The translations under genes and the position numbers were made by a program. Positions 2,895 to 42,502 of a stretch of 58,897 nt of DNA are shown one piece after another (position 1 is the stretch's first letter; each line of letters begins with the position of its first letter). The stretch is from an uncultured SAR86 cluster bacterium (GTDB lineage Bacteria > Pseudomonadota > Gammaproteobacteria > Magnimaribacterales > D2472), in assembly GCA_902617955.1 (NCBI GenBank), contig CACMYW010000002.1, forward strand, positions 1 to 58,897, given 5' to 3'. The notes under the pieces were generated by a model. The model made no database searches, was not told the origin of the DNA, and was given only the letters and a program-made list of their open reading frames with translations.

Positions 2895-4952
2895 ATGATA
2901 TTTATTAGAAATTTAAATTTATTTTTCTGTGCTATTTACGCAGGTTTAATCCTTGCAGTAGATATTAATTTAGATATCAAACCAACGCTAGAAAACCAAA
3001 AAATACAAAAAGAAATTATCAAAAAAGTAAAGGAAGATCATTTTTTTAAAGTAAATAATATTGAAGACATAAATAATATCTTTCAGGAAAAACTAATTGA
3101 AAGCCTGGATCCTTCGAAAGTCTATTTTACAAAATTGGAATTTGAGCAATATGGAAATAACCTTAATGATGAAAGTTTTGATCTAAATAATAGCTTTAGA
3201 ATATTAAATAAGTATTTTAATCGTCTTATAGAGGCTACTTCATACCAGATTGAAATCTTGAAAAATTTTAATTTTGATTTTTCAAAGTCTGAATATTTAG
3301 ATATTTATTCTGACGATAATGAATGGAAGTCCTCATTTACAGAATTACGAAAAGAATGGTTTCTTCTTGCAAAGAATGATTTATTGAATGAAGTCCTTGA
3401 CGAAGATTTATCTAATGAAACTAATAGCAGGCAAACAATTATTGATAGGTATGAACGAAGAATAAGGAGAATTACTCAGCGAACTAACGAGGACTATTTT
3501 TCAATCATTATGAATAATTTTACTAGCCAATTTGATCCTCATTCAGCCTATTTATCGCCAAAATCCGCGGAAGATTTTGATATGCAAATGAGCTTAAGTC
3601 TTGAAGGTATTGGTGCTCTGCTGGGAATTGAAGATGATTATGCAAAAGTTGTAAGTTTAGTTCCTGGTGGACCTGCTGCTAAATCAAATCAGCTATCTCC
3701 TGATGACAGAATAGTTTCTATAAGACAGGCATATGAAGAAAAAAGTACGGATGTAGTTGGCTGGAGAATAGATGAGATTGTCAAGCTGATTCGAGGAGAT
3801 GCGGGTACTGAAGTAGAGCTTGAAATAATACCGTCAAAATCTCTTGAATCCTCAGAAAGAAAGTTCGTAACTCTTGTGAGGGAAGAAGTTCAGCTTGAAG
3901 AGCAAGCTGCAAAAAGCAAAATTATTAGCATAGACTCAGAATCAAGGAACTATAGAGTTGGAATAATTGAGTTGCCAGCATTTTATATAGACTTTAATGC
4001 TTGGAGAGAAAGAGATCCAAATTTTAGAAGTAGCTCAAGAGATGTTGAAAATATTCTCAGGTCATTTAACAAAGATAATGTAGATGCAGTTTTAGTTGAT
4101 CTCAGAGGTAATTCTGGTGGTTCATTATATGAAGCAAATAAACTCACTGGTTTATTTGTTGCATCTGGTGCAACTGTTCAGGTGAAAGAGAGTTCTGGAA
4201 ACATTAGGCCTTGGGGTGATGGAAGAGCCAAGCAAATATGGAAAAAACCTGTAGGAGTTTTAGTTGATAGATACTCAGCCTCAGCATCAGAAATCTTTGC
4301 TGGAGCGATTCAAGACTATAAAAGAGGCATAGTAATTGGTCACAGAACATTTGGTAAAGGCACAGTTCAGCGCCTGGATGATCTTAGCGCAGGTCAGATT
4401 AAAATTACAGAATCAAAATTTTACAGGGTCAGCGGTTCAAGCACTCAGGCCAAAGGTATTGAACCAGATATTGTGCTGCCATCAACATGGGACATCGAAG
4501 AAACTGGTGAAAGCTCCTTAGATGAGTCTCTTCCTTGGGATACTATAAGACCAATTAGGCATAGAATATATAATTTGAATGATTTCGCAATTCAAAGAGC
4601 ATCTGATAATCACCTTGAAAGATTATCTAGTGATCCTAATATGCAATATATTTTAAAGATCAGACAAAAATATGATCAACGTAAAAATAGAAAGCAACTT
4701 TCTTTAAATATTGATGAAAGAAAAAAAGATAAGTTAGACAGAAGATTATGGATTCTAAATACTGAAAATTCTCGAAGAAATCTTTTAAATATTGAGACAT
4801 TTAGTACTTATGATGATTTGGAGACATTTAGAGAGGATATTGACTCTGAGGAGATATCTTTGGAAAATGATTTTCTTCTTAATGAATCAAAAAATATAAT
4901 TATTGATTACCTAAAATTTAGCTATCCATTAATTGCTGCTAATCAAAATTAA
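2895..4952 (+). CDS. prc: carboxy-terminal processing (tail-specific) protease, S41 family
   Basis: 685 aa with a hydrophobic N-terminus. Has a PDZ-like segment (LEGIGALLG..VVSLVPGGPAAKS) and an S41 core (DLRGNSGGSL, SASASEIFAGA, FGKGTVQ). Confidence 0.9.
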   Translation: MIFIRNLNLFFCAIYAGLILAVDINLDIKPTLENQKIQKEIIKKVKEDHFFKVNNIEDINNIFQEKLIESLDPSKVYFTKLEFEQYGNNLNDESFDLNNSFRILNKYFNRLIEATSYQIEILKNFNFDFSKSEYLDIYSDDNEWKSSFTELRKEWFLLAKNDLLNEVLDEDLSNETNSRQTIIDRYERRIRRITQRTNEDYFSIIMNNFTSQFDPHSAYLSPKSAEDFDMQMSLSLEGIGALLGIEDDYAKVVSLVPGGPAAKSNQLSPDDRIVSIRQAYEEKSTDVVGWRIDEIVKLIRGDAGTEVELEIIPSKSLESSERKFVTLVREEVQLEEQAAKSKIISIDSESRNYRVGIIELPAFYIDFNAWRERDPNFRSSSRDVENILRSFNKDNVDAVLVDLRGNSGGSLYEANKLTGLFVASGATVQVKESSGNIRPWGDGRAKQIWKKPVGVLVDRYSASASEIFAGAIQDYKRGIVIGHRTFGKGTVQRLDDLSAGQIKITESKFYRVSGSSTQAKGIEPDIVLPSTWDIEETGESSLDESLPWDTIRPIRHRIYNLNDFAIQRASDNHLERLSSDPNMQYILKIRQKYDQRKNRKQLSLNIDERKKDKLDRRLWILNTENSRRNLLNIETFSTYDDLETFREDIDSEEISLENDFLLNESKNIIIDYLKFSYPLIAANQN

Positions 4953-5761
4953 TGAAAATAATTTCTTTCAATATTAATAGTGTAAGAGCTAGACCTCATC
5001 AACTTGAATACATTCGTGACAATCTTGATCCTGATGTTATTGGACTTCAGGAAACAAAAGTACATGATGATGAATTTCCTATCGAGTTAATTAATGAGAT
5101 TGGTTATCACTGTGAATACTGGGGGCAAAAAGGTCATTATGGGGTGGCATTACTAAGCAAGAAAAAGCCACTGGAGGTTTCAAAAGGATTTCTAAGAGAT
5201 ACTGCTGAAGATCAAAAGAGATTTATTCAAGGAAAATATAAGTTTAAAAAAAAAGATATCTACATATTAAATGGTTATTTTCCTCAAGGTGAAAATAGAA
5301 ATCATGAAACCAAGTTTCCCAAAAAAATTAAGTACTATAAAGATTTGAAATCTCATATAAAAAGGTTACAAAAATCAACTTCGAATATCATAGTAATGGG
5401 TGACTTTAATGTAGCTCCAAACGAAAAGGATATAGGGATAGGTGAAAATAATGCTAAGAGATGGCTTAGAGATGGAAAATGTGCTTTTTTGCCAGAGGAA
5501 ATTAAGATGTGGAATTCAATTAGAGACCTAGGGTTTGTTGATAGTTGGAGATTGCAAAATCCTGATGAAGGTTCTATCTATTCTTGGTTTGATTATAGGT
5601 CAAGAATGTTTGATGATAACCCAAAAAGGGGCCTCAGGATTGATCATATTTTGGTATCAAATGAGCTCTCATCATCAATAAAATCAACTGGTATAGATTA
5701 TAAAGCAAGGTCTTTAGAGAAACCCTCCGATCATTGTCCTATTTGGTTAGAAATTAACTAG
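4952..5761 (+). CDS. xthA: exodeoxyribonuclease III / AP endonuclease
   Basis: Motifs IISFNINSVRAR, GLQETK, MGDFNVAP and SDHCPIW. Its ATG overlaps the prc stop (TAATG). Confidence 0.92.
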   Translation: MKIISFNINSVRARPHQLEYIRDNLDPDVIGLQETKVHDDEFPIELINEIGYHCEYWGQKGHYGVALLSKKKPLEVSKGFLRDTAEDQKRFIQGKYKFKKKDIYILNGYFPQGENRNHETKFPKKIKYYKDLKSHIKRLQKSTSNIIVMGDFNVAPNEKDIGIGENNAKRWLRDGKCAFLPEEIKMWNSIRDLGFVDSWRLQNPDEGSIYSWFDYRSRMFDDNPKRGLRIDHILVSNELSSSIKSTGIDYKARSLEKPSDHCPIWLEIN

Positions 5762-6224
5762 TTTTTTTTCGCCTTCCATGAAAAAATTTTCTTAAAATCT
5801 CTGCAGATTCATCTGCCAGTATGCCATAGGAATATTTAACTTTATGGTTGTGAAAAGTTTTTTCAAAGAAGTTGTCAACCGATACAATTGCGCCAGTCTT
5901 AGGTTCTGTGACAGCAAATATCACCTCATCAATTCTTGATTCTAGAATTGCTTTTGCACACATATGGCATGGTTCAAGCGTAATATAGATCTGTGACCCT
6001 TTACCAATCCTGTAATTCCCAAGTGTTTTACATGCCATTTCGATAGCCTCTATCTCAGCATGCATAATTGGCGAGTTTTTTCTGATGACTTTGTTAAACC
6101 CCTCCCCAATTAAGATATCATCTTTTACAATTACACTGCCAACTGGGACCTCATTTTGGTGTGCAGCCTCTTTAGCGAGCTGTAAACTCTTTCTCATGTA
6201 AAATAAGTGTTTTGAATTAGTCAT
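5754..6224 (-). CDS. tadA: tRNA adenosine(34) deaminase
   Basis: 156 aa with the zinc deaminase motifs HAEIEAI and PCHMCAKAI. Confidence 0.9.
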   Translation of the reverse strand: MTNSKHLFYMRKSLQLAKEAAHQNEVPVGSVIVKDDILIGEGFNKVIRKNSPIMHAEIEAIEMACKTLGNYRIGKGSQIYITLEPCHMCAKAILESRIDEVIFAVTEPKTGAIVSVDNFFEKTFHNHKVKYSYGILADESAEILRKFFHGRRKKTS

Positions 6225-9578: not shown

Positions 9579-10686
9579 TAACTTCTAAAATTTCAAAAAT
9601 ATTTTTATTCACTTTTTGGACATCATATTTGCTTTCACAATATTTCCTTGATTCATTACCCATTCTTATTAGATCTACATTCATTATTTTAAAGAAAAAG
9701 GGTAGCGCTCCTTCAGCATCTTTTGCAGGAACTAAGTATCCATTAACCCCATGACGAACTGTTTCTCTACAACCAGAAACATCTGTAGTAATAATTGGTC
9801 TACCAACTGACATTGCTTCGAGGACACTCCTTGGTGTTCCTTCATTGTAAGATAATAATACATATATACTTGATTTCTGAATCGCTGCTTCAACATCAAC
9901 AACATTTCCTATGTATTCAATCCCAAAAGAATGATACCAATCTTGTTCAATTTCATTTATATCTAAAGAGTCGTTATGTTTGTCAGCTGGACCTCCTAGC
10001 AAGAATCTGACATTTGGATAGACGCTTTTAAATGCCTTTGATACGTTAGCGTATTCAACTATTCCTTTTGATTTAATTAATCTTGCCAAACAAAGAAAAG
10101 TTAAATCCTTGGGAAACTCAGATTTTCTAAATTTTGATAAATCAACACCTGATCCATTAACTTGAAATGAATTAGCATCATCAGCAAGATTTAAATCAAT
10201 AAATAATTTTTTGTCGTCTGGATTTTGAAAAATAATGTGTGTGCTAAAAAATAATGCTATTTTGAAGAAGAAAAGTCCAATTTTTTTCCTTAATTTATGA
10301 AAAAATGTATCCTCTTCAAATAAATGTCCTGTTCCAGTAATTAATGAAATTATATTTTTAGTACCACAAATCTTTCCTGCAAATGCACCAACTAAAACAG
10401 GCTTGTGTGTGTACGAGAAAATATGTGATGGTCTATATTTGATAATAATTTTTATAAGAGATATGACGCTCAACACAGCCTTAAAAGGGTTTATGCTTTT
10501 TCTTTCAATAGAAACATATTCAAATGATGCCCCCCAGCTATCTAATAAAGTTAAATTATGAGTGTCTATATTAGGCGCGACACCTAATACACTAAAGCCA
10601 CTATTCAAGAATTTTTTAATTAGCTCTCCACGAAAATTAATTAGTGAATTACCATCTCCGCAGTAAAAGATAATTAATTTTTTCAT
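9571..10686 (-). CDS. glycosyltransferase family 4 (GT-B, WbuB/PglA-like)
   Basis: EGTPRSVLEAMSVGRPIITTDVSGCRETV is the E(x7)E-type GT4 motif. 371 aa. Confidence 0.88.
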   Translation of the reverse strand: MKKLIIFYCGDGNSLINFRGELIKKFLNSGFSVLGVAPNIDTHNLTLLDSWGASFEYVSIERKSINPFKAVLSVISLIKIIIKYRPSHIFSYTHKPVLVGAFAGKICGTKNIISLITGTGHLFEEDTFFHKLRKKIGLFFFKIALFFSTHIIFQNPDDKKLFIDLNLADDANSFQVNGSGVDLSKFRKSEFPKDLTFLCLARLIKSKGIVEYANVSKAFKSVYPNVRFLLGGPADKHNDSLDINEIEQDWYHSFGIEYIGNVVDVEAAIQKSSIYVLLSYNEGTPRSVLEAMSVGRPIITTDVSGCRETVRHGVNGYLVPAKDAEGALPFFFKIMNVDLIRMGNESRKYCESKYDVQKVNKNIFEILEVNG

Positions 10687-12360: not shown

Positions 12361-12447
12361 TGGTGCCCAGAGCCGGACTTGAACCGGCACGAGGTTGCCC
12401 TCGAGGGATTTTAAATCCCTTGTGTCTACCAATTCCACCACCTGGGC
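12361..12447 (-). tRNA. tRNA-Leu (anticodon UAA), CCA encoded
   Basis: Reverse complement reads GCCCAGGTGGTGGAATTGGTAGACACAAGGGATTTAAAATCCCTCGAGGGCAACCTCGTGCCGGTTCAAGTCCGGCTCTGGGCACCA. It folds by hand: 7-bp acceptor stem; anticodon stem AGGGA/TCCCT with loop TTTAAAA (UAA); long variable arm CGAGG-GCAA-CCTCG; T arm GCCGG-TTCAAGT-CCGGC. Confidence 0.95.
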
Positions 12448-31392: not shown

Positions 31393-31485
31393 TTATCTAC
31401 TAAAAAGATCAAAGCCAGTATGAAATAGAATAACAGGCAGAACTACTAATGCTCTCAAACCATCAATTTCAACCCTATAATTCAT
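31393..31485 (-). pseudogene. N-terminal remnant (30 codons + stop) of an acyltransferase-3 (OafA-like) gene
   Basis: Hand translation gives MNYRVEIDGLRALVVLPVILFHTGFDLFSR-stop. About 21 of the first 26 residues match the start of the intact acyltransferase at 37560 (MNYRPEIDGLRALAVLPVILFHAGFE). Confidence 0.8.
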
Positions 31486-31533
31486 ACAAAAATTATCTCT
31501 TTAAGCTTTAGTTAGCCTTACATAAACTTAATA

Positions 31534-31887
31534 TTACTCTTGCATACCAAATAGATAATCATGATGTGACAACTGATCAATTAAGTGGTATCCATTTGTG
31601 TGAAGAAAACTTTTTAGGCGATTAATATCTCTAGATTCAACCAAAATATATTTAAAGGAATACTTAAAAAAATTAACCCCTTTCAAAACTTCTAATTCTG
31701 CTCCTTCTACATCAAGTGATAATAAATCAATTACTGCGGGTGCATTAGTAGCGTCTAAAATACTAGATAAAGTTCTTGCTTTTGCTCCAAAACTCAGTGA
31801 CTTTTCATATTTGTTAAATCCCTTTCTTGCCTGATCAATAAAATCTTTTTTATTATTCGTCTTATCATATGGTTTTAAGGTAATTTT
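31534..31887 (-). pseudogene. C-terminal remnant of an FkbM-family methyltransferase (no start codon, N-terminal half missing)
   Basis: Hand translation gives KITLKPYDKTNNKKDFIDQARKGFNKYEKSLSFGAKARTLSSILDATNAPAVIDLLSLDVEGAELEVLKGVNFFKYSFKYILVESRDINRLKSFLHTNGYHLIDQLSHHDYLFGMQE-stop. (I/L)DLLxxDVEGAELEVLKG is the FkbM hallmark. The frame has no ATG except 3 codons from its end. Only 77 nt separate it from the next gene. Confidence 0.8.
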
Positions 31888-35598: not shown

Positions 35599-37560
35599 CT
35601 AATTTAAAATCACTTTTAGATCATTTAGTAAGAGCTTTGCTCCTTCAGAATTGAAATGATTTTCGTCAGAATATATCAATTTTTTCATATATATTGGTGA
35701 GCACATATTATTCGTTGAGCCTGATTTTCTACAGACATAATTTGAAGGAAAAACTCTTAGTACATTATCTCCCTCAATCTTATTTAGTAGATCAAAGGCC
35801 TTTTCTGATCTTTCATTGAAATATTTTTTTTCGTAGGAGTTATTTAAATTTTTTCCCCACAATAATCCTTTTGCATACAATTTATACTGATCAAAACCAA
35901 ATTCAGGTATTGGATAAATTAATATAAGTTGTGAACTAATTTCAGCGAGCCTGTGCAGATATTGTTCTACAGCATCTACATATTCATATTGAGAATCATC
36001 AATCGCAATGAAAGGTCTATATGTATCAGATTCCTCTCTAAAAAATTCTCCATCAGATAAGTAAAGTGGTAATCTACCGCCGACAACAATAATAGGATTG
36101 TCAAGCTCATTAATAAGCTTAAATCTCTCATTTTGGATTCTAAAACTACATGATTCCTGCTCTATTCCTGTTTTAGAAAATACTTTTCTAAATCCTAAAA
36201 CAGGGAAGCACTCTCCAGCAATCAACGGTATGAGAGTATAATCTTTGCTAAATTGATCATCCATGAAAACATTCACTAAAGATAATAAATGGCTATCTCC
36301 GATGAATATAATTTCTTTGCCTTTACCAATCCTGCATGTTTCATGGATATCCTTAATTTCAAAACAATTTTTACCAGATGGCAAAGTAATATCTCTATAA
36401 TCCACAAATTCTTGGAACTTGTTAATTCTATACTCGGCACCTTCTGATTTATCTAGTATTAAACCTATTGAGATAAATAAAATAATAAATGATGCTAATA
36501 ATTTAAAAATTGTAGTTCTTTTTACATAATTTTTTTGCCTAAATGGTCTTTCAACAAATAGCCAAGTTAGCCATCCTATAAATATTGACATCAAGCATAA
36601 AAATATCAGAATAGTCACTGATTCATCCTCAAAAAATCTATGCTTATAAAATGCTAGCAAAGGTTGGTGCCACAAATATGCGCTATAGGAAATAAGGCCC
36701 ATTCCGACAAATAATTTCATGCTGAGTAATTTATAAACGAAAGTCTTTGGTACAGCACATAAAATTAATAACAATGTTCCAATTGTAGGGATAAGGGCAT
36801 ATAAACCAGGAAAAGGCGTTGATTCATTAAAAGTGATAATCGAATAAACGATCATTCCAATACCTAATATGCTTAACAATTGATTAAAAAAATAAGAGCT
36901 AAAATGTAAATTATTCTTGAGATAAAATGCAGCAAAAACTCCAATTAGCAATTCCCAGCCTCTGGATGGCAAAAGAAAGAATGTACCTGATATTAATCTA
37001 GGAGTATTGGAATTCTGTATCCAAAATATCGCAAGAATTAAACTAACCAAAAAAGCTATAGATAGCAATATAAGTATAGTTTTAATTCCTAATCGCCAAG
37101 TGGTTAACAAGAATAAAGGGAATAATAAATAAAACTGCTCCTCAACTGCCAAACTCCAAGTATGAAGCAGAGGTTTCAACTCAGCTGCATTATCAAAGTA
37201 ACCGCTCTCCAACCAAAAGAGAATGTTTGATGAAAAAGTTGCAACAGCAATGAGGCTCTGCCCAAAGTCCTTTAAGTCATTAGGTGTAAGCCATAACCAT
37301 GCAAAAGGAAGAGATATAAACATCACAAAAAATAATGCTGGTAAAAGTCGTCGAGTTCTTCGCTCATAGAAGTTGATGAGGCTAAATGTACCTTTATCCA
37401 TTTCAGAGATAATAATGTTTGTTATTAAATAGCCGCTAATAACAAAAAAAACGTCAACCCCTACAAATCCTCCATCAAACCATTCAAAACCAGCATGAAA
37501 TAAAATTACCGGTAATACTGCTAAAGCTCTAAGCCCATCTATTTCTGGTCTATAATTCAT
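35599..37560 (-). CDS. acyltransferase family 3 O-acetyltransferase with a C-terminal SGNH-like domain (OafA/OatA-like)
   Basis: N-terminal RPEIDGLRALAVLPVILFHAG motif, ~10 TM segments, then a ~270-aa soluble domain (IFIGDSH). Confidence 0.88.
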   Translation of the reverse strand: MNYRPEIDGLRALAVLPVILFHAGFEWFDGGFVGVDVFFVISGYLITNIIISEMDKGTFSLINFYERRTRRLLPALFFVMFISLPFAWLWLTPNDLKDFGQSLIAVATFSSNILFWLESGYFDNAAELKPLLHTWSLAVEEQFYLLFPLFLLTTWRLGIKTILILLSIAFLVSLILAIFWIQNSNTPRLISGTFFLLPSRGWELLIGVFAAFYLKNNLHFSSYFFNQLLSILGIGMIVYSIITFNESTPFPGLYALIPTIGTLLLILCAVPKTFVYKLLSMKLFVGMGLISYSAYLWHQPLLAFYKHRFFEDESVTILIFLCLMSIFIGWLTWLFVERPFRQKNYVKRTTIFKLLASFIILFISIGLILDKSEGAEYRINKFQEFVDYRDITLPSGKNCFEIKDIHETCRIGKGKEIIFIGDSHLLSLVNVFMDDQFSKDYTLIPLIAGECFPVLGFRKVFSKTGIEQESCSFRIQNERFKLINELDNPIIVVGGRLPLYLSDGEFFREESDTYRPFIAIDDSQYEYVDAVEQYLHRLAEISSQLILIYPIPEFGFDQYKLYAKGLLWGKNLNNSYEKKYFNERSEKAFDLLNKIEGDNVLRVFPSNYVCRKSGSTNNMCSPIYMKKLIYSDENHFNSEGAKLLLNDLKVILN

Positions 37561-37731
37561 AACTTATTTTCTGCTTCACAAATAAAGGAATCTCTTAAAG
37601 ATACATAAACTAATCTTTTGTGCTGGGATGATTAAAAAGCTATAAAAATTTTATATTGTTCCCCATCACCATCGCATAGTTTAAAACCCCTTAGATACAG
37701 TACTTTTAAAACATTTTGTACGAAGTTTGTA

Positions 37732-38082
37732 TCATTTTTTTGAAAAAAATGTTTTTGCAAATCTATCAAGCAAACTTAATTTATCTTGAAGAACTACAAC
37801 CCCGTTCACCATTATTGATAATTTGACTGAGAAAAACCCTGCCAAAAAAACTTCAATAGATTTTATATCATCAGAAACTTCACTTTTAGTAAGCATTGCT
37901 TTGTTAGGATTTACCAACATGTCTGTGTTTCGATCTAAATGTTCATTATCTAAATATAAATCTGCGGCACCCTTCCCTTCCCAATTCCACCAATTAGATA
38001 CTTTGATTATTTTTCCATTAAAATTAACAGACCATTCTTTGTAATTAGATTTTTCCATTTTATTCACACTCAATAGGATCAA
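37732..38082 (-). CDS. hypothetical protein
   Basis: 116-aa ORF (a likelier start is the Met at MEKSNYKEW). No recognisable motif. Coding status is inferred only from length and tight spacing to the upstream methyltransferase. Confidence 0.4.
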   Translation of the reverse strand: MILLSVNKMEKSNYKEWSVNFNGKIIKVSNWWNWEGKGAADLYLDNEHLDRNTDMLVNPNKAMLTKSEVSDDIKSIEVFLAGFFSVKLSIMVNGVVVLQDKLSLLDRFAKTFFSKK

Positions 38083-38095
38083 TTACTTATTTAAT

Positions 38096-38923
38096 TCACA
38101 TCGATTTATTGAAATAAAGTTTCATATAAGGCAAAAAGTTGGGAAACTTCTTTATTAAGTTCAAAACTCCTAAAGCCTTCAACAACGAGGCAACTTTTCC
38201 AATAGTAGATTGTCGTTTCCTAAATTCAGCATCCTTTGACACTCGCTCAATCATGTAGTCAATTATTGAAGTGTCGTCACTCACAGAGAATCCAAGTTTC
38301 GAAATATTTTTTTTACAGTACGCTAAAACATGTCTCTTTTTGACAAAGTTTAAAGACTTCCAAAGTCCCAAAGAGTTGTTATTTTTTTCAAAATTTAAGA
38401 TGTTGTTTCCAAAAATACTAAAAGTGAGTCTTTTATTAAAAATAATAGGTATTTTGAAGTGTGATTCATAAGGAAATCCATAATTTGGACAAAGTACTAC
38501 AAATCGTCCATTTTCAGTAAGATTGTTAGAGGCCCAATCTAAAAAATGCTGCCAATCATTAACGTGCTCAAAAACATTTACGCAGTAAATAAAATCATAC
38601 CTAGATTGATGTTCTTCATACCTTTCAATCGACAGATTTACACCTAAGTCTTTAACAACAGCATTCAAATCTTTAAGGTTTGAAAATCCATCTCCAAATG
38701 GCTCAATCCCCAAAAATTTATGGTTAGGAAATTCTTCAGCTAAAACAGACAAGAGAATTCCGCTTCCACACCCAACTTCCAATATTTTTGAGTCATCAGC
38801 AAGTGAAGATATTGTTTCTTTTAATTGCGAAAATCCAAATTTCGCTTCTGCAAGCCATAATTTCGAATTATCTAAATCAGAAGCATTGATAAATTTTGTG
38901 ATTTTGTAATTATTCAAGTTCAT
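38096..38923 (-). CDS. class I SAM-dependent methyltransferase
   Basis: ILEVGCGSGILLS motif I, with a downstream acidic/aromatic motif (IYCVNVFEHV). Confidence 0.85.
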   Translation of the reverse strand: MNLNNYKITKFINASDLDNSKLWLAEAKFGFSQLKETISSLADDSKILEVGCGSGILLSVLAEEFPNHKFLGIEPFGDGFSNLKDLNAVVKDLGVNLSIERYEEHQSRYDFIYCVNVFEHVNDWQHFLDWASNNLTENGRFVVLCPNYGFPYESHFKIPIIFNKRLTFSIFGNNILNFEKNNNSLGLWKSLNFVKKRHVLAYCKKNISKLGFSVSDDTSIIDYMIERVSKDAEFRKRQSTIGKVASLLKALGVLNLIKKFPNFLPYMKLYFNKSM

Positions 38924-38988
38924 TTAAACCTCAATTAAGAATTAGACGTGTTCAACGATCAACATGAATACATAATTAACAAACAATA

Positions 38989-39002
38989 TCAATAAAATCA
39001 AT
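38989..39002. repeat. short direct repeat Y1 (tcaataaaatcaat)
   Basis: 14/14 identical to 40269..40282. The partially similar extension ends in ttaag in both copies. Confidence 0.55.
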
Positions 39003-39019
39003 AAGTTAAGTTATTTCAA

Positions 39020-39043
39020 CTACTCCCACTCAACTGTAGCACG
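39020..39043 (-). repeat. displaced guaA 3'-terminus remnant A (R-A-T-V-E-W-E-stop)
   Basis: Minus strand reads CGT GCT ACA GTT GAG TGG GAG TAG. The authentic guaA end is CCT GCA ACT ATT GAG TGG GAA TAA. 18/24 nt are identical, and the differences are mostly synonymous or conservative. Confidence 0.65.
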
Positions 39044-39078
39044 TATGTAAGTTATTGATTTTTAACATATAACTTTTT

Positions 39079-39100
39079 AGTTTCCAACTACCTTCTAACT
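39079..39100. repeat. short direct repeat X1 (agtttccaactaccttctaact)
   Basis: 18/20 identical to 40177..40196. Its right half also matches 40113..40124. Confidence 0.6.
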
Positions 39101-39188
39101 TTTTATGGCAATCTACATATGTACTGCAGGCAACACATTACTTTGCCACATAAAATTTCAGTTTTTATTAAAGACAATATTAGTTTTT

Positions 39189-40085
39189 TTAAATAAATCT
39201 AATTCGAAATTTTTTTAGAGGTAAAAATTGTGACGATTCTTTAGTTTCAACAAAGGATGCGTCTGTTATTTTAAGCAATCCACTTCCACAAATAATAATT
39301 GGACACCCTTTCTCAACAAAAATAACTTTTCCAATATGCCTTAACTTGCAATCAACATCTGGAATAACTTCTGCATCTTTAATTGAAATTTCACTTCCAT
39401 CGCTTAATTTGCTGCGAGCACCCAAATATGGAAATCCAACAGCATCAATTAGTCGCTTAATCTCATTAGATGATTTGCTCCAATCTACAAAGTAATCGTC
39501 ATAGTCTCTCCAAATTGAATATGAAGATTCAGATTCTTTTTGTGGGATGGAGGATATATCTTTATCAGCAGAAATTTTCTCTACTACTTCCAAAACAAGA
39601 CTTTTAAAATTCTCATTATTAATCTGAATGGCATCTTGAATCTTGATTGGATAACCAATAGTTGTTTTTTTCTGAGAAATAATCTCACCCCTATCGTATT
39701 CATCAGCACCAAAGATTGCGGAGACTCCGATTTCTTTTTCTCCATTTATCAGCATATTAACTAATGGTGCAAAACCTCTGTATTTAGGCAAAATAGAGTC
39801 ATGAAAAATTATTAGTTTATTTTTTGGATGCTTTATCATCCATCGCCAAGAAACTGCCATAACATAAATGTTTTTATCTATTTTTGGCTGATTTTCTCGA
39901 AAATAAAATTCTATATTGTTATCAATGCATAAAGTTGTGATTTTTTCGCTGTAATCATCATTTACACTCGCATCTTTTCCGATAATCACAAAAGCAATTA
40001 AGTTCTTTAAGTGAATTATCGTTTTTAGAACTTCAAAACCTTTTTCAGTCATTAAATTAAGAACGAGATAGTTGTCTTTTTTCAT
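39189..40085 (-). CDS. formyltransferase-domain protein (sugar N-formyltransferase / Fmt-like)
   Basis: HDSILPKYRGFAPLVNMLINGE matches the formyl_trans_N catalytic block (H..LP.yRG). 298 aa with a C-terminal beta-barrel-like extension. Confidence 0.75.
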   Translation of the reverse strand: MKKDNYLVLNLMTEKGFEVLKTIIHLKNLIAFVIIGKDASVNDDYSEKITTLCIDNNIEFYFRENQPKIDKNIYVMAVSWRWMIKHPKNKLIIFHDSILPKYRGFAPLVNMLINGEKEIGVSAIFGADEYDRGEIISQKKTTIGYPIKIQDAIQINNENFKSLVLEVVEKISADKDISSIPQKESESSYSIWRDYDDYFVDWSKSSNEIKRLIDAVGFPYLGARSKLSDGSEISIKDAEVIPDVDCKLRHIGKVIFVEKGCPIIICGSGLLKITDASFVETKESSQFLPLKKFRIRFI

Positions 40086-40112
40086 ATTTCTTATGCTTTG
40101 TAATAGTTGCTG

Positions 40113-40124
40113 TACTTTCTAACT
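40113..40124. repeat. partial repeat X3 (tactttctaact)
   Basis: Matches the right half of X1/X2. Low complexity, so weak alone. Confidence 0.3.
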
Positions 40125-40176
40125 TTGTTTTAAACAATATAGACAGAAAGTAAGTAATAGCAACAAAAAAGGGTTG

Positions 40177-40196
40177 AGTTTCTAACTACTTTCTAA
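40177..40196. repeat. short direct repeat X2 (agtttctaactactttctaa)
   Basis: 18/20 identical to X1 at 39079. Confidence 0.6.
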
Positions 40197-40234
40197 ATCA
40201 TAAATCCTTATATTATATTTCTAAAAGTGATGAA

Positions 40235-40258
40235 CTATTCCCACTCCATAGTTACGTT
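40235..40258 (-). repeat. displaced guaA 3'-terminus remnant B (..V-T-M-E-W-E-stop)
   Basis: Minus strand reads AAC GTA ACT ATG GAG TGG GAA TAG. 16 of the last 18 nt are identical to the authentic guaA end. Confidence 0.65.
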
Positions 40259-40268
40259 ATCTAAAACC

Positions 40269-40282
40269 TCAATAAAATCAAT
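40269..40282. repeat. short direct repeat Y2 (tcaataaaatcaat)
   Basis: Exact 14-mer copy of Y1. Confidence 0.55.
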
Positions 40283-40333
40283 GGTTTTAAGAGTATTGAA
40301 ATAGACTTTGTAACTTCTTTGTAACTATTATTC

Positions 40334-40921
40334 TCAATTACTTTTAAGTCCTAGTTGAAGAACTTTCTCAATCCATCGATCTCGAGTCTTTGGTTTAGAG
40401 CCTTTTACCGGAGAAAATTCAGTTACCTTAACAGGCTTTACTCCACAGAATTCAAGCGTCGCTTTCTTCAACTGATTGACGCTAGGGGCATTAAAAATCC
40501 AACGGTAATAGAAAGTTGGGGTATCCATAGTAGCTATAATGCGCGCTGATTTTCCTTCAAGATACCCATCCCATCCCATACCGCCGAGCTTCGATTCGTT
40601 GTAATCAAAAACAATGGAAGGGAGAAAAGTTCTATCAATAAACCCTTTTGCAAGCGCTGGTAAACCGCCCCACCAAACAGGGTGAAACCAAACCATGTGC
40701 TCACATGCTTTAATTTCATCAATAGCCATCAGCAGATCAGGTTCTAGATCAATGCGCTTCTCATAACCAAACTTAAGATTAGGATTAAATTCCATATCTC
40801 TTATGATTATAGTTCTAATGTCGTATCCACTTTGAAGTGCGCCTCGCTTGTAAGCATCTACCAAAGAACTGGTAAGTCTGTTGCTATCAGGATGTGCGTC
40901 AATTAATAGAATTTTTTTCAT
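40334..40921 (-). CDS. flavodoxin-like fold NAD(P)H dehydrogenase (quinone) family protein (Flavodoxin_2, KefF/MdaB-like)
   Basis: ILLIDAHPDSNRLTSSL N-terminus and FHPVWWGGLPALAKGFIDR motif. Its ATG directly abuts the guaA stop (TAAATG). Confidence 0.75.
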   Translation of the reverse strand: MKKILLIDAHPDSNRLTSSLVDAYKRGALQSGYDIRTIIIRDMEFNPNLKFGYEKRIDLEPDLLMAIDEIKACEHMVWFHPVWWGGLPALAKGFIDRTFLPSIVFDYNESKLGGMGWDGYLEGKSARIIATMDTPTFYYRWIFNAPSVNQLKKATLEFCGVKPVKVTEFSPVKGSKPKTRDRWIEKVLQLGLKSN

Positions 40922-42502
40922 TTATTCCCACTCAATAGTTGCAGGTGGTTTGCCTGAGATATCATAAACTACCCTGCTCACTCCCTCTAATTCATTTACG
41001 ATCCTGTTTGATACTTTCCCCAAAAACTCTAAAGGTAATTTTGACCATTCAGCTGTCATAAAGTCAACAGTCTTAACAGACCTTAGAGCTATAACATCTG
41101 CATAACGTCTTTCATCCCCAACGACACCAACAGATTTTACTGGTAGGTATACACAAAATGCTTGGCTGACCTCGTCATAAAGGCCCTCTTTTTTTAATTC
41201 ATCAATAAAAATTGAGTCTGCCTCTTGCAGTATTGAAATATTTTCTTGATTTATCTCACCCAATATTCTTACTCCGAGTCCGGGACCAGGAAAAGGATGT
41301 CTTTTAAGTATTTCATTAGGCAGGCCTAATAAAGCGCCCATTTTTCTGACCTCATCTTTAAATAGATCCCTAAGAGGTTCTACTAAGCTCATCTTCATTT
41401 CATCTGGCAATCCACCAACGTTGTGATGAGACTTAATTATTCTAGCTTCCTTTGATTCAGACTCAGATGATTCAATCACATCAGGATAAATTGTTCCTTG
41501 TGCTAAAAAACTTATTTCGTCAGAGGTATGTAAATTTACTGATTCGTTATCAAAAACATCTATAAAGGTCCTACCGATAACTTTTCTTTTTTGCTCGGGA
41601 TCAGTTACGCCTTTTAGGTGCCTATAAAATGTTTTCTTTGCATCCACAACCTCAAGGTTAAGATTAATTTTATTTTTAAAAAGATCTATTACCTCATTAA
41701 CTTCATTTTTTCTTAATAGGCCGTTATCAACGAACATACAAATTAAGTTTTTACCGATCGCCCTATCAAGCAACATAGCAGTTACCGATGAATCGACTCC
41801 CCCAGATAGTCCTAAAAGAACTTTTTTATCCCCAACTTTCGCTTTAATGTCTTTTATTCTGTGATCAATTAAATCATTTAATTTCCAATTTCTTCTAGAT
41901 TTACAAATATCTATTATAAAATTTTCAATGATTTTTTGGCCCTTATCTGTATGCGTTACTTCGGGATGAAATTGAAGAGCATAATAAGGCATATCTTTAT
42001 GCTCCATTGCCGCGATAGGTGCAGATTGAGTTGATGCACTCAATATAAAATCATCGGGCAAGATCGAAACATGATCTCCGTGACTCATCCAAACATCTAG
42101 ATTTTTTGTATCTAAGTCATCAAAGATTTTAGAGGCATACTCAATCTTTAATTCTGCATAACCAAACTCCTTTGTAGATGAAGTGGTTACACTTCCTCCA
42201 TTTTGCTCGGCCAGTGTTTGCATTCCATAACAAATACCCAGAATAGGAATGCCTAAGTTAAAAATAATTTCTGGAATTCTTGGAGTATTTTCTTGAGTTA
42301 CAGATTCTGGGCCACCAGATAGAATTACCCCTTTAGGGTTTAGTGCAGATATTTTTTCTGTTGCAATATCCCATGGGAATATTTCGGAATAAACTCCAAG
42401 TTCTCTGACTCTTCTAGCTATTAATTGAGTATATTGAGATCCAAAATCTAAAACTAAAATAGTATCAAGATCTGACTTTGATAAAGTTATATTACTGCTC
42501 AT
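40922..42502 (-). CDS. guaA: GMP synthase (glutamine-hydrolysing)
   Basis: GATase domain (GICYGMQ), PP-loop [11 protein letters not shown] and the canonical C-terminus [10 protein letters not shown]. Confidence 0.97.

Follow-up and report, generated by a model that had tools for sequence, protein, structure and literature searches.

Here we describe the 2.86 kb that follow guaA, the GMP synthase gene, in a stretch of 58,897 nucleotides (nt) from an uncultured SAR86-cluster gammaproteobacterium (contig CACMYW010000002.1, hereafter the window), whose GuaA protein is 95% identical to that of the single-amplified genome AG-447-K20. This segment probably consists of three miniature integrative cassettes for which a heterobivalent tyrosine integrase, acting in trans, is the mover. 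We found repeated copies of the guaA terminus, an empty site, precise boundaries, cassettes shared between hosts, a recurrent arm architecture and no linked recombinase. The original prediction for this DNA had read the guaA end as a place where cassettes were inserted one after another; the empty site, the recurrence across genomes, the shared cassettes, a boundary that falls within the motif GAGTGGGA and the lack of a linked recombinase all support such serial insertion, by site-specific recombination.

The window carries four same-strand copies of the guaA terminus (Table 1). Three had been reported before as minus-strand 24-mers, and we recovered them at 40945-40922 (the guaA end), 40258-40235 (copy B, 16 of 18 positions identical) and 39043-39020 (copy A, 18 of 24). 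The total of three was too low, as a fourth copy, D, had been overlooked: its 18-mer CCTATTGAGTGTGAATAA (38077-38060) matches the guaA end at 16 of 18 positions and lies between the methyltransferase stop and the next open reading frame (ORF), which makes four copies and three cassettes instead of two. Copy D is decayed, marked by a G-to-T change in its overlap. The copies exceed chance in the shuffling check that had been suggested for them. With up to three mismatches allowed, the 18-mer has four matches in the window against 0.11 expected, none of 100 shuffles reached four, and dinucleotide shuffles of the individual spacers put p at 5e-4 for A (24-mer) and below 5e-4 for both B and D. The remaining details of the layout also held up, namely a single ORF in each gap between successive copies, encoding a Flavodoxin_2 protein and a formyltransferase, and a flavodoxin-like ATG that abuts the guaA stop as TAAATG. 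Likewise, the similarity to guaA ends abruptly, with edges at about -20 and +1 in the window and in 46 distinct copies from related loci; as the stretch from -17 to 0 was the search pattern itself, only the extension to -20/-19 and the steep fall-off at each edge count as independent evidence. The view that the window copies are tails of other guaA alleles did not survive, and they are instead att cores of about 20 nt on cassette arms. Long diverged guaA tails (106-329 nt) were found in five distal copies only, all in other loci, and these are 77-83% identical to the best-matching SAR86 guaA.

Comparison with related loci (L-numbers denote individual guaA-region loci compared with the window) identified the uninterrupted state of this site. 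In L081, the metagenome contig with the closest guaA (96% amino acid identity), a small ORF of 108 amino acids directly follows guaA, and this constitutes an empty site. A single core at bases 1570-1596 of L081 aligns to both the guaA end and copy D of the window; therefore, the window bears a 2,862-nt insert between direct repeats, which B and A split into cassettes of 687, 1,215 and 960 nt. L001 represents a one-cassette state, in which an unrelated cassette and the core copy at its end separate guaA from the 108-amino-acid ORF. The sequence expected for a precise empty site is guaA-GAGTGGGAATAA-AATGGAAAAATC.

To place the window among its relatives, we gathered loci around guaA from 16 SAR86 genomes and 80 metagenomes (96 SAR86 loci), searched them for terminus copies with ACNATHGARTGGGARTRR at up to two mismatches, and counted loci with at least 1.5 kb downstream of guaA (n=78). 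Extra copies, one to four per locus, are present in 31 of these 78; the variable genes and variable core numbers predicted to follow guaA in relatives do exist. Downstream of guaA there are 51 copies on the guaA strand, against none in 512 kb upstream, and four on the opposite strand, at least two of which are coding coincidences inside the conserved prc gene. Sequence divergence sets in directly past the guaA stop in nearly every genome. Only 2 of 59 non-SAR86 genomes have an extra copy. Array units measure 0.1-2 kb overall and, with the arrays outside SAR86 included, are stacked up to six deep; the cassettes are co-oriented with guaA (most ORFs) and mostly carry a single gene in 0.4-2.2 kb, and 'empty' units of about 96-129 nt, composed of arm sequence only, also occur. 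The cargo includes SAM (S-adenosylmethionine) and FkbM methyltransferases, an epimerase, a serine hydrolase, MBL (metallo-beta-lactamase)-fold, DUF3800, GNAT, GDSL, SnoaL and flavodoxin-like proteins and a formyltransferase; some cassettes carry defence genes, with a type IIG restriction-modification enzyme in one and a DNA methylase in another. The restriction-modification enzyme, Eco57I-like and 1,079 amino acids long, occupies the cassette at 9378-12617 of L150; at 2142-3945 of L092, an N6/N4 DNA methylase lies with a convergent 303-amino-acid ORF.

Outside SAR86 we noted other arrangements at the guaA end. L050 (11548-19149), a gammaproteobacterial metagenome-assembled genome (MAG) of 50% GC, has a 7.6-kb guaA island between core copies and without an integrase, the first ~60 nt of which resemble one SAR86 P'-arm family (CTTTTCTGG..TTGACTTGCA). 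Gene-free short tandem repeats of the guaA tail, with units of about 50-72 nt or of 15 nt, are found in L033 (6714-6870, a Cardiobacteriaceae MAG) and in L187 (a 624-kb contig labelled viral).

Evidence for recent movement comes from a cassette encoding an SRPBCC-like protein of 157-159 amino acids, which is 99.2-100% identical over 451-483 nt in L001, L013, L091 and L151; guaA itself is only 70-84% identical among these four loci over its last 1 kb. The start of this cassette is always GGGAGTAA/TGATGCG, including in L151, where it is the second cassette of the array. In L083, a cassette is truncated to 64 nt. The protein family forms clusters of 130-827 sequences, and one exact protein, P0093, is present on 135 contigs and listed in 151 index blocks. 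P0093 directly follows guaA in a gammaproteobacterial lineage of 38% GC with guaB-guaA synteny (L267, L269-L276) and in an organism of 55% GC (L268) whose guaA is about 75% identical to Halomonas-type guaA; the closely related variant P0013 does so in an organism of 41% GC (L259) with a guaA 54% identical in amino acids to that of the window. The 99-100% identity of this cassette in hosts with divergent guaA and 38-55% GC therefore indicates recent transfer of an integrase-less unit. Arrays of the 38% GC lineage have up to six extra cores, and the presence and content of their cassettes vary between loci whose genes upstream of guaA stand in a shared order (L267-L275). One locus derived from Oxford Nanopore (ONT) reads, L258, was set aside: its guaA terminus before the SRPBCC cassette is garbled (9920-10000) and guaA is split in two ORFs, probably through an assembly error.

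The point of exchange can be placed by the variable bases at the end of the core. These bases, R-T-R-R, include the stop codon and are constant in related cassettes irrespective of what stands on their left, guaA or another cassette; therefore, they arrive with the inserting cassette, and GAGTGGGA or a position left of it is where exchange takes place. The guaA stop and last Glu codon differ among strains (GAATAA, GAGTAA, GAGTAG, GAATGA and others in L001-L015, L073 and the window at 40922-40926), and both co-vary with the adjacent cassette, the stop being TAA, TAG or TGA. As the crossover lies left of the stop, it is the neighbouring cassette that provides guaA with its stop codon, and an essential gene thus has its end repeatedly rewritten by the insert.

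Reconstructed attP cores have inverted half-sites round a 7-bp spacer, ACTATT/GAGTGGG/AATAGT (a 6-9-bp inverted repeat), with GTAACTATT/GAGTGAG/AATAGTTAC in L092_C1, and in this respect they have the form of lambda-type cores, in which inverted half-sites flank an overlap of 6-8 bp. On the P arm, 24 of 42 cassettes have a pair of direct repeats of about 9-11 nt in 11-nt phase, 60-76 nt upstream of the core, followed by a hairpin, CCCTT..AAGGG, and then TTTCAGAG or TTGTAAAA. The P' arm of many cassettes starts with a conserved segment of about 30 nt (CCCTACAACCCC or CTCTGAAACCCC) that is an inverted repeat of the P-arm segment, after which come a repeat pair, a hairpin, a second repeat pair and ACTATTAC. 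At least eight repeat types occur in all, among them GTTGTAAAG, AGTTACAAAG, CTTGTAAAC, GATACAAAC and GTTACACG, and the type is the same on both arms in six of six two-armed cassettes. With their fixed distance and their covariation between arms, the direct repeats are putative arm-type binding sites of an integrase. Comparable elements accompany integrase-bearing guaA insertions: in L189 (E. coli-type), core, spacer, repeat pair, hairpin and repeats lie between guaA and a gene with Arm-DNA-bind_3, Phage_int_M and Phage_integrase domains, and in L021 (Aeromonas) the same elements stand beside the integrase gene, hairpin first and repeats after. The guaA gene of E. coli ends in ACCATTGAGTGGGAATGA.

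The array genes of the window and guaA are all on the minus strand, in the order guaA, Flavodoxin_2, formyltransferase, SAM-methyltransferase and 108-amino-acid ORF, and the last 21 nt of guaA form the proximal att core (Table 1). C2 is the window cassette with the full arm layout, including a third P'-arm repeat copy (40113-40124) followed by a pseudo-core, ACTATTACA, at 40099-40107; the circle junction expected from joining its own P and P' arms, a reconstructed sequence, is ...CATACGTGCTACAGTTGAGTGGGAATAGTTCATCACTTTTAG.... C1 has no P' arm. Its P arm is 78% identical to the arm of L006_C1; compared by eye, it matches the L272 +1297 arm of the 38% GC lineage, which is joined to other cargo, at about 90% identity, and its repeat pair stands at the same distance in L006, L160 and L272. 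Homologs of the C3 methyltransferase account for nine ORFs in the arrays of eight other loci. The C1 and C2 proteins of the window were not on record in exact-protein look-ups, and a terminator and promoter scan of 37600-41100 yielded nothing above background.

Table 1. Features of the guaA cassette array and its flanks, in window coordinates
Feature	Position	Strand	Sequence	Remarks
guaA (GMP synthase), target gene	40922..42502	-		Pfam GATase and GMP_synt_C
Proximal att core, attL-type	40922..40942	-	GCAACTATTGAGTGGGAATAA	ACTATT / GAGTGGG / AATAA; core extent defined on 46 copies
Cassette C1, 687 nt	40235..40921	-		Flavodoxin-like NAD(P)H oxidoreductase ORF 40334-40921, Pfam Flavodoxin_2; start fused to guaA stop (TAAATG)
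C1 P-arm direct-repeat pair	40306..40326	-	AGTTACAAAG, twice	11-nt phase; about 75 nt upstream of core B; putative arm-type binding sites
C1 P-arm hairpin	40263..40288	-	AAAACC..GGTTTT	Counterpart of the CCCTT..AAGGGTTT hairpin of other cassettes
Core copy B	40235..40255	-	GTAACTATGGAGTGGGAATAG	Overlap GAGTGGG intact
Cassette C2, 1,215 nt	39020..40234	-		Both arms; formyltransferase ORF 39189-40085, Pfam Formyl_trans_N/C
C2 P'-arm direct-repeat pair	40176..40198	-	ATTTAGAAAGTA / AGTTAGAAACT	Third copy at 40113-40124
C2 P-arm direct-repeat pair	39078..39100	-	AGTTAGAAGGTA / AGTTGGAAACT	Repeat type as in C2 P' arm
C2 P-arm hairpin	39050-39074	-	AGTTAT..ATAACT	
Core copy A	39020..39040	-	GCTACAGTTGAGTGGGAGTAG	Overlap intact; two changes in left half-site
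Cassette C3, 960 nt	38060..39019	-		SAM-methyltransferase ORF 38096-38923, Pfam Methyltransf_23/12; no recognisable arm repeats remain
Core copy D	38060..38080	-	GATCCTATTGAGTGTGAATAA	Distal attR-type boundary of the whole insertion; L081 alignment
Small ORF, 108 amino acids, ancestral right flank	37732..38058	-		No Pfam match; adjoins guaA in L081, follows the sole cassette in L001

Our model is that each cassette comprises a cargo gene with one arm of a lambda-type attP on either side, and that it would enter as a circle, the presumed intermediate, through conservative site-specific recombination. Strand exchange would take place in the 7-bp overlap GAGTGGG of ACTATT/GAGTGGG/AATAGT, which corresponds to the I-E-W-E-stop end of guaA. 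Integration would rebuild guaA with its final bases and stop taken from the cassette and would leave a second core copy at the far cassette end, and repeated insertion at any core copy would build the array. The enzyme would be an arm-binding tyrosine integrase, presumably of the P4/GIsul2 kind, which a helper element, unlinked or transient, would provide; since none of the cassettes encodes a recombinase, the supply would have to be in trans. Among the mechanisms named in the original prediction, a trans-acting integrase fits best, and integron-like capture fits functionally but fails mechanistically because no attC-type fold is present.

The prediction had also remarked that no recombinase is present nearby, and Pfam, phmmer and profile searches bear this out for the window and about 116 marine array loci, with no int within 8-10 kb of the guaA arrays. 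In the window, Pfam searches of nearly all ORFs of at least 100 amino acids, from 254 to 45419, detected no recombinase, and the region of about 45.6-58.9 kb was covered by integrase searches only. Positive controls for the integrase searches worked, comprising L021 and 12 IMG/VR loci, L189 among them, nine of which have an integrase about 70-400 nt from the core.

Several of our results weigh against this model. Neither phmmer with five probes from tyrosine recombinases nor a profile made from those five found an integrase among 1,248 ORFs from the window and the 96 SAR86 loci, and the same searches found none in L258-L276. No cassette-type attP was detected in IMG/VR, INPHARED phages or PLSDB plasmids, and no circular junction was observed. 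It is position 2, behind the SRPBCC cassette, and not the guaA-proximal position that varies in the arrays of L267-L275; therefore, insertion does not simply place the newest cassette next to guaA. The repeat types, if they are arm sites, would imply either several cognate integrases or one tolerant integrase. Additionally, several cassettes, including C1 and C3 of the window, lack one or both arms.

The searches for a helper element, none of which was found in IMG/VR or in the phage or plasmid collections, took several forms. Two patterns combining a repeat pair with the core had no matches in IMG/VR, and BLAST of a 219-nt reconstructed attP against INPHARED phages and PLSDB plasmids gave no match. 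Considered as a helper or free attP, the IMG/VR pattern of core plus CTVMAACCC was rejected after one random match of 61% GC. The pattern GGGTTTCAG..ATTGAGTGGGA was likewise discarded: of its 56 matches, almost every one is the same conserved coding sequence of phages (..RGFQIKSAIEWEKFVNGQ*), which has no relation to att sites. About 55 viral contigs in IMG/VR (L202-L257), many of them about 4.2 kb long, share a conserved gene ending in ..NRGFQIKSAIEWEKFVNGQ*; this is an unrelated phage gene family whose DNA mimics part of the att pattern.

Other explanations for the arrays have to be weighed against trans-mobilized cassettes. The arrays could be decayed remnants of complete guaA-integrating elements, such as prophages, satellites or GIsul2/PIME-like islands, that each brought an integrase, later lost all but a cargo gene and the att scars through deletions, and are now immobile. 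The degenerate cores (the changed overlap of D and the changed half-site of A), the truncated cassette of L083 and the 'empty' units speak for some decay, and complete guaA elements with an integrase do occur elsewhere among bacteria, namely in L021, in L189 and in 11 more IMG/VR loci. However, none of the ~116 marine array loci retains even an integrase fragment, and random deletion would not keep both arms and one gene time after time. Immobility is also hard to reconcile with a cassette that is 99-100% identical while its hosts differ in guaA by up to 30% of nucleotides or about 46% of amino acids and in GC from 38 to 55%, or with the variable cassette content of L267-L275, and we consider this explanation unlikely. 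Quite unlikely, too, is homologous recombination in guaA with foreign DNA, followed by an illegitimate far join, whereby a new tail would displace the old one without a dedicated recombinase. It predicts long diverged guaA tails, which is what the five distal copies are, and guaA borders a replacement-type glycosylation island thought to turn over in that way; homologous or illegitimate recombination may explain those five tails. Most copies, however, share only 19-23 nt with guaA and have sharp edges, hosts with 52-70% guaA identity are too divergent for this process and still have the left boundary at the same few bases, and neither the conserved arm modules nor the covariation within cassettes is explained.

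A strict integron-like system, with folded single strands, attC-type hairpins and an IntI-like enzyme encoded elsewhere, as in clusters of attC sites lacking integron integrases (CALIN), would account for co-oriented, mostly single-gene and apparently promoterless cassettes at one fixed site without an adjacent integrase, and the P-arm and P'-arm segments are indeed inverted repeats flanking the core. Yet the five reconstructed attP sites fold no better than shuffles as single-stranded DNA (z +0.4 to -1.3), no Rfam family matched in five array loci, and the core would sit in a loop rather than a stem, its half-site, 7-bp spacer and half-site being of the duplex type. These observations make a strict integron very improbable. 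A chance origin of the repeats, or a role as a regulatory or translational motif with no part in DNA mobility, is effectively refuted by the shuffle tests, the downstream-upstream asymmetry and the empty-site comparison. Such matches can arise by chance: a plus-strand 18-mer, ACTATAGAGTTGGAATAA (window 3949-3966; L003 15224-15207), was tried as an att site and dismissed as a coding coincidence because it lies inside the tail-specific protease gene prc and is conserved in L003. A Xer/dif system of the kind used by integrative mobile elements exploiting Xer (IMEX) and by pdif modules was also rejected by inspection, in comparison with dif, cer and psi: a dif-like site has an 11-6-11 layout with inner half-sites ..ATAA / TTAT.., and the core is TATT-N7-AATA with a 7-bp spacer and no dif-like arms.

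The cassettes of the window, read as units moved in trans, have clear relatives among described elements. The original prediction had named the guaA 3' end as a target of GIsul2-type islands, and this is published: GIsul2 inserts there with 19-bp att sites and the experimentally defined core GAGTGGGA, and its Int moves an integrase-less, att-flanked CR2-sul2 unit in trans between att copies (PMC9376610). More broadly, GIsul2, PIMEs, satellites and prophages are all known to use guaA as their attB. The target of the SAR86 arrays is the same, the crossover lies in the same motif inside a direct repeat of about 19-21 nt, as found at the four cores of the window, and extra att copies delimit integrase-less units, as with the CR2-sul2 unit moved by Int in trans. 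In contrast to GIsul2/PIME islands (PMC9376610; bioRxiv 10.64898/2026.01.12.698999), which span 15-22 kb with int, alpA, rep and transfer genes next to guaA, the SAR86 arrays consist of units of 0.1-2 kb, typically with one gene and no int, in streamlined marine plankton. Additive islands marked by the last ~20 nt of their target are known from other streamlined plankton, for example the tRNA-Lys island of 'Ca. Methylopumilus' (PMC10872708), and the resemblance to such islands that had been suggested for the window is borne out by the recurring terminal repeats of about 20 nt and the strain-variable content. Unlike the tRNA islands of 'Ca. Methylopumilus' and Prochlorococcus and the tycheposons, however, the target here is protein-coding and its stop is rebuilt by each insert, a two-armed attP is resolved, and identical cassettes occur across distant lineages; tycheposons, moreover, carry their own recombinase.

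With integrons and CALIN arrays the guaA arrays have in common that capture is at one fixed chromosomal place after an expressed gene, that the single-gene cassettes point the same way and mostly lack promoters, that the cassette pool is shared and that no integrase is adjacent. They differ in that there is no attC hairpin and no IntI or Pc beside the site, with no recombinase within 10 kb; recombination would use a lambda-type attP with arm repeats and a duplex core, and a housekeeping gene's end takes the place of 'attI'. Finally, the cis-mobilizable elements (CIMEs) of streptococci are likewise att-flanked, devoid of recombination genes and arranged in tandem at one attB; they depend on the integrase of a helper element, as the guaA units would. 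Whereas CIMEs are kilobase-scale deletion derivatives of ICEs (integrative and conjugative elements) in Firmicutes, the guaA units look like minimal cargo-plus-attP modules exchanged across lineages. We found no description of guaA cassette arrays in SAR86 in the literature. New here are integrase-less mini-cassettes with complete attP arms, integron-like stacking and a pool common to marine gammaproteobacterial lineages.

The array sits at the border of a larger variable region. Upstream of guaA are a phosphoribosyltransferase and a TonB-dependent receptor gene (Pfam); beyond the 108-amino-acid ORF follow, in order, an AT3-SGNH acyltransferase, an SxtJ-like protein and a carbamoyltransferase. 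The interval from tadA (5754-6224) to guaA is a variable surface-polysaccharide island of about 34.7 kb (6225-40921), with NeuB/nonulosonic-acid, cytidylyltransferase, capsule-synthesis and glycosyltransferase genes, epimerases, an ABC exporter and, at 12361-12447, tRNA-Leu(TAA); its equivalents in L003 span only about 1.26 kb and 0.27 kb (about 1.5 kb for the whole interval). The cassette array thus forms an additive margin to a glycosylation island of the replacement type. A tRNA-linked additive island in the window was rejected, as partial tRNA-Leu repeats were looked for and none are present. Deep in the island, window 31400-31539 (minus strand) holds a truncated 5' end of an AT3 acyltransferase gene plus its leader, which shares 77% identity with the intact gene start at 37484-37561 and about 76% with the stretch of L006 that comes right after the last guaA core copy of that locus; it may be a relic of an older junction between array and flank.

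In the ocean, few heterotrophs are as abundant as SAR86 and comparable streamlined plankton, which have large strain-level variation in gene content but few conventional mobile elements. It is quite possible, and we propose it tentatively, that marine Gammaproteobacteria (SAR86 and at least three further lineages, 38-55% GC) share an unrecognised integron-like capture platform that docks at the guaA end and is served by an unlinked, broad-host-range, arm-binding integrase, possibly a transient one. If so, this would be a second, mechanistically distinct form of cassette-based plasticity in organisms thought to be nearly free of mobile elements, with a common pool of tiny attP-bearing cassettes passing between lineages and carrying, among other cargo, surface-sugar modifying enzymes, restriction-modification systems, hydrolases and small ligand-binding proteins. 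The arrays extend the biology of guaA-targeting integrases, known from GIsul2, PIMEs, satellites and prophages, to minimal passenger units. Since the I-E-W-E-stop docking sequence is nearly universal in bacteria, an attP module of about 230 bp together with its integrase could become a broad-host-range integration tool for marine bacteria that are hard to engineer. For SAR86 itself, the guaA cassette site offers a concrete and testable route of gene gain and loss beside the cell-surface glycosylation island.

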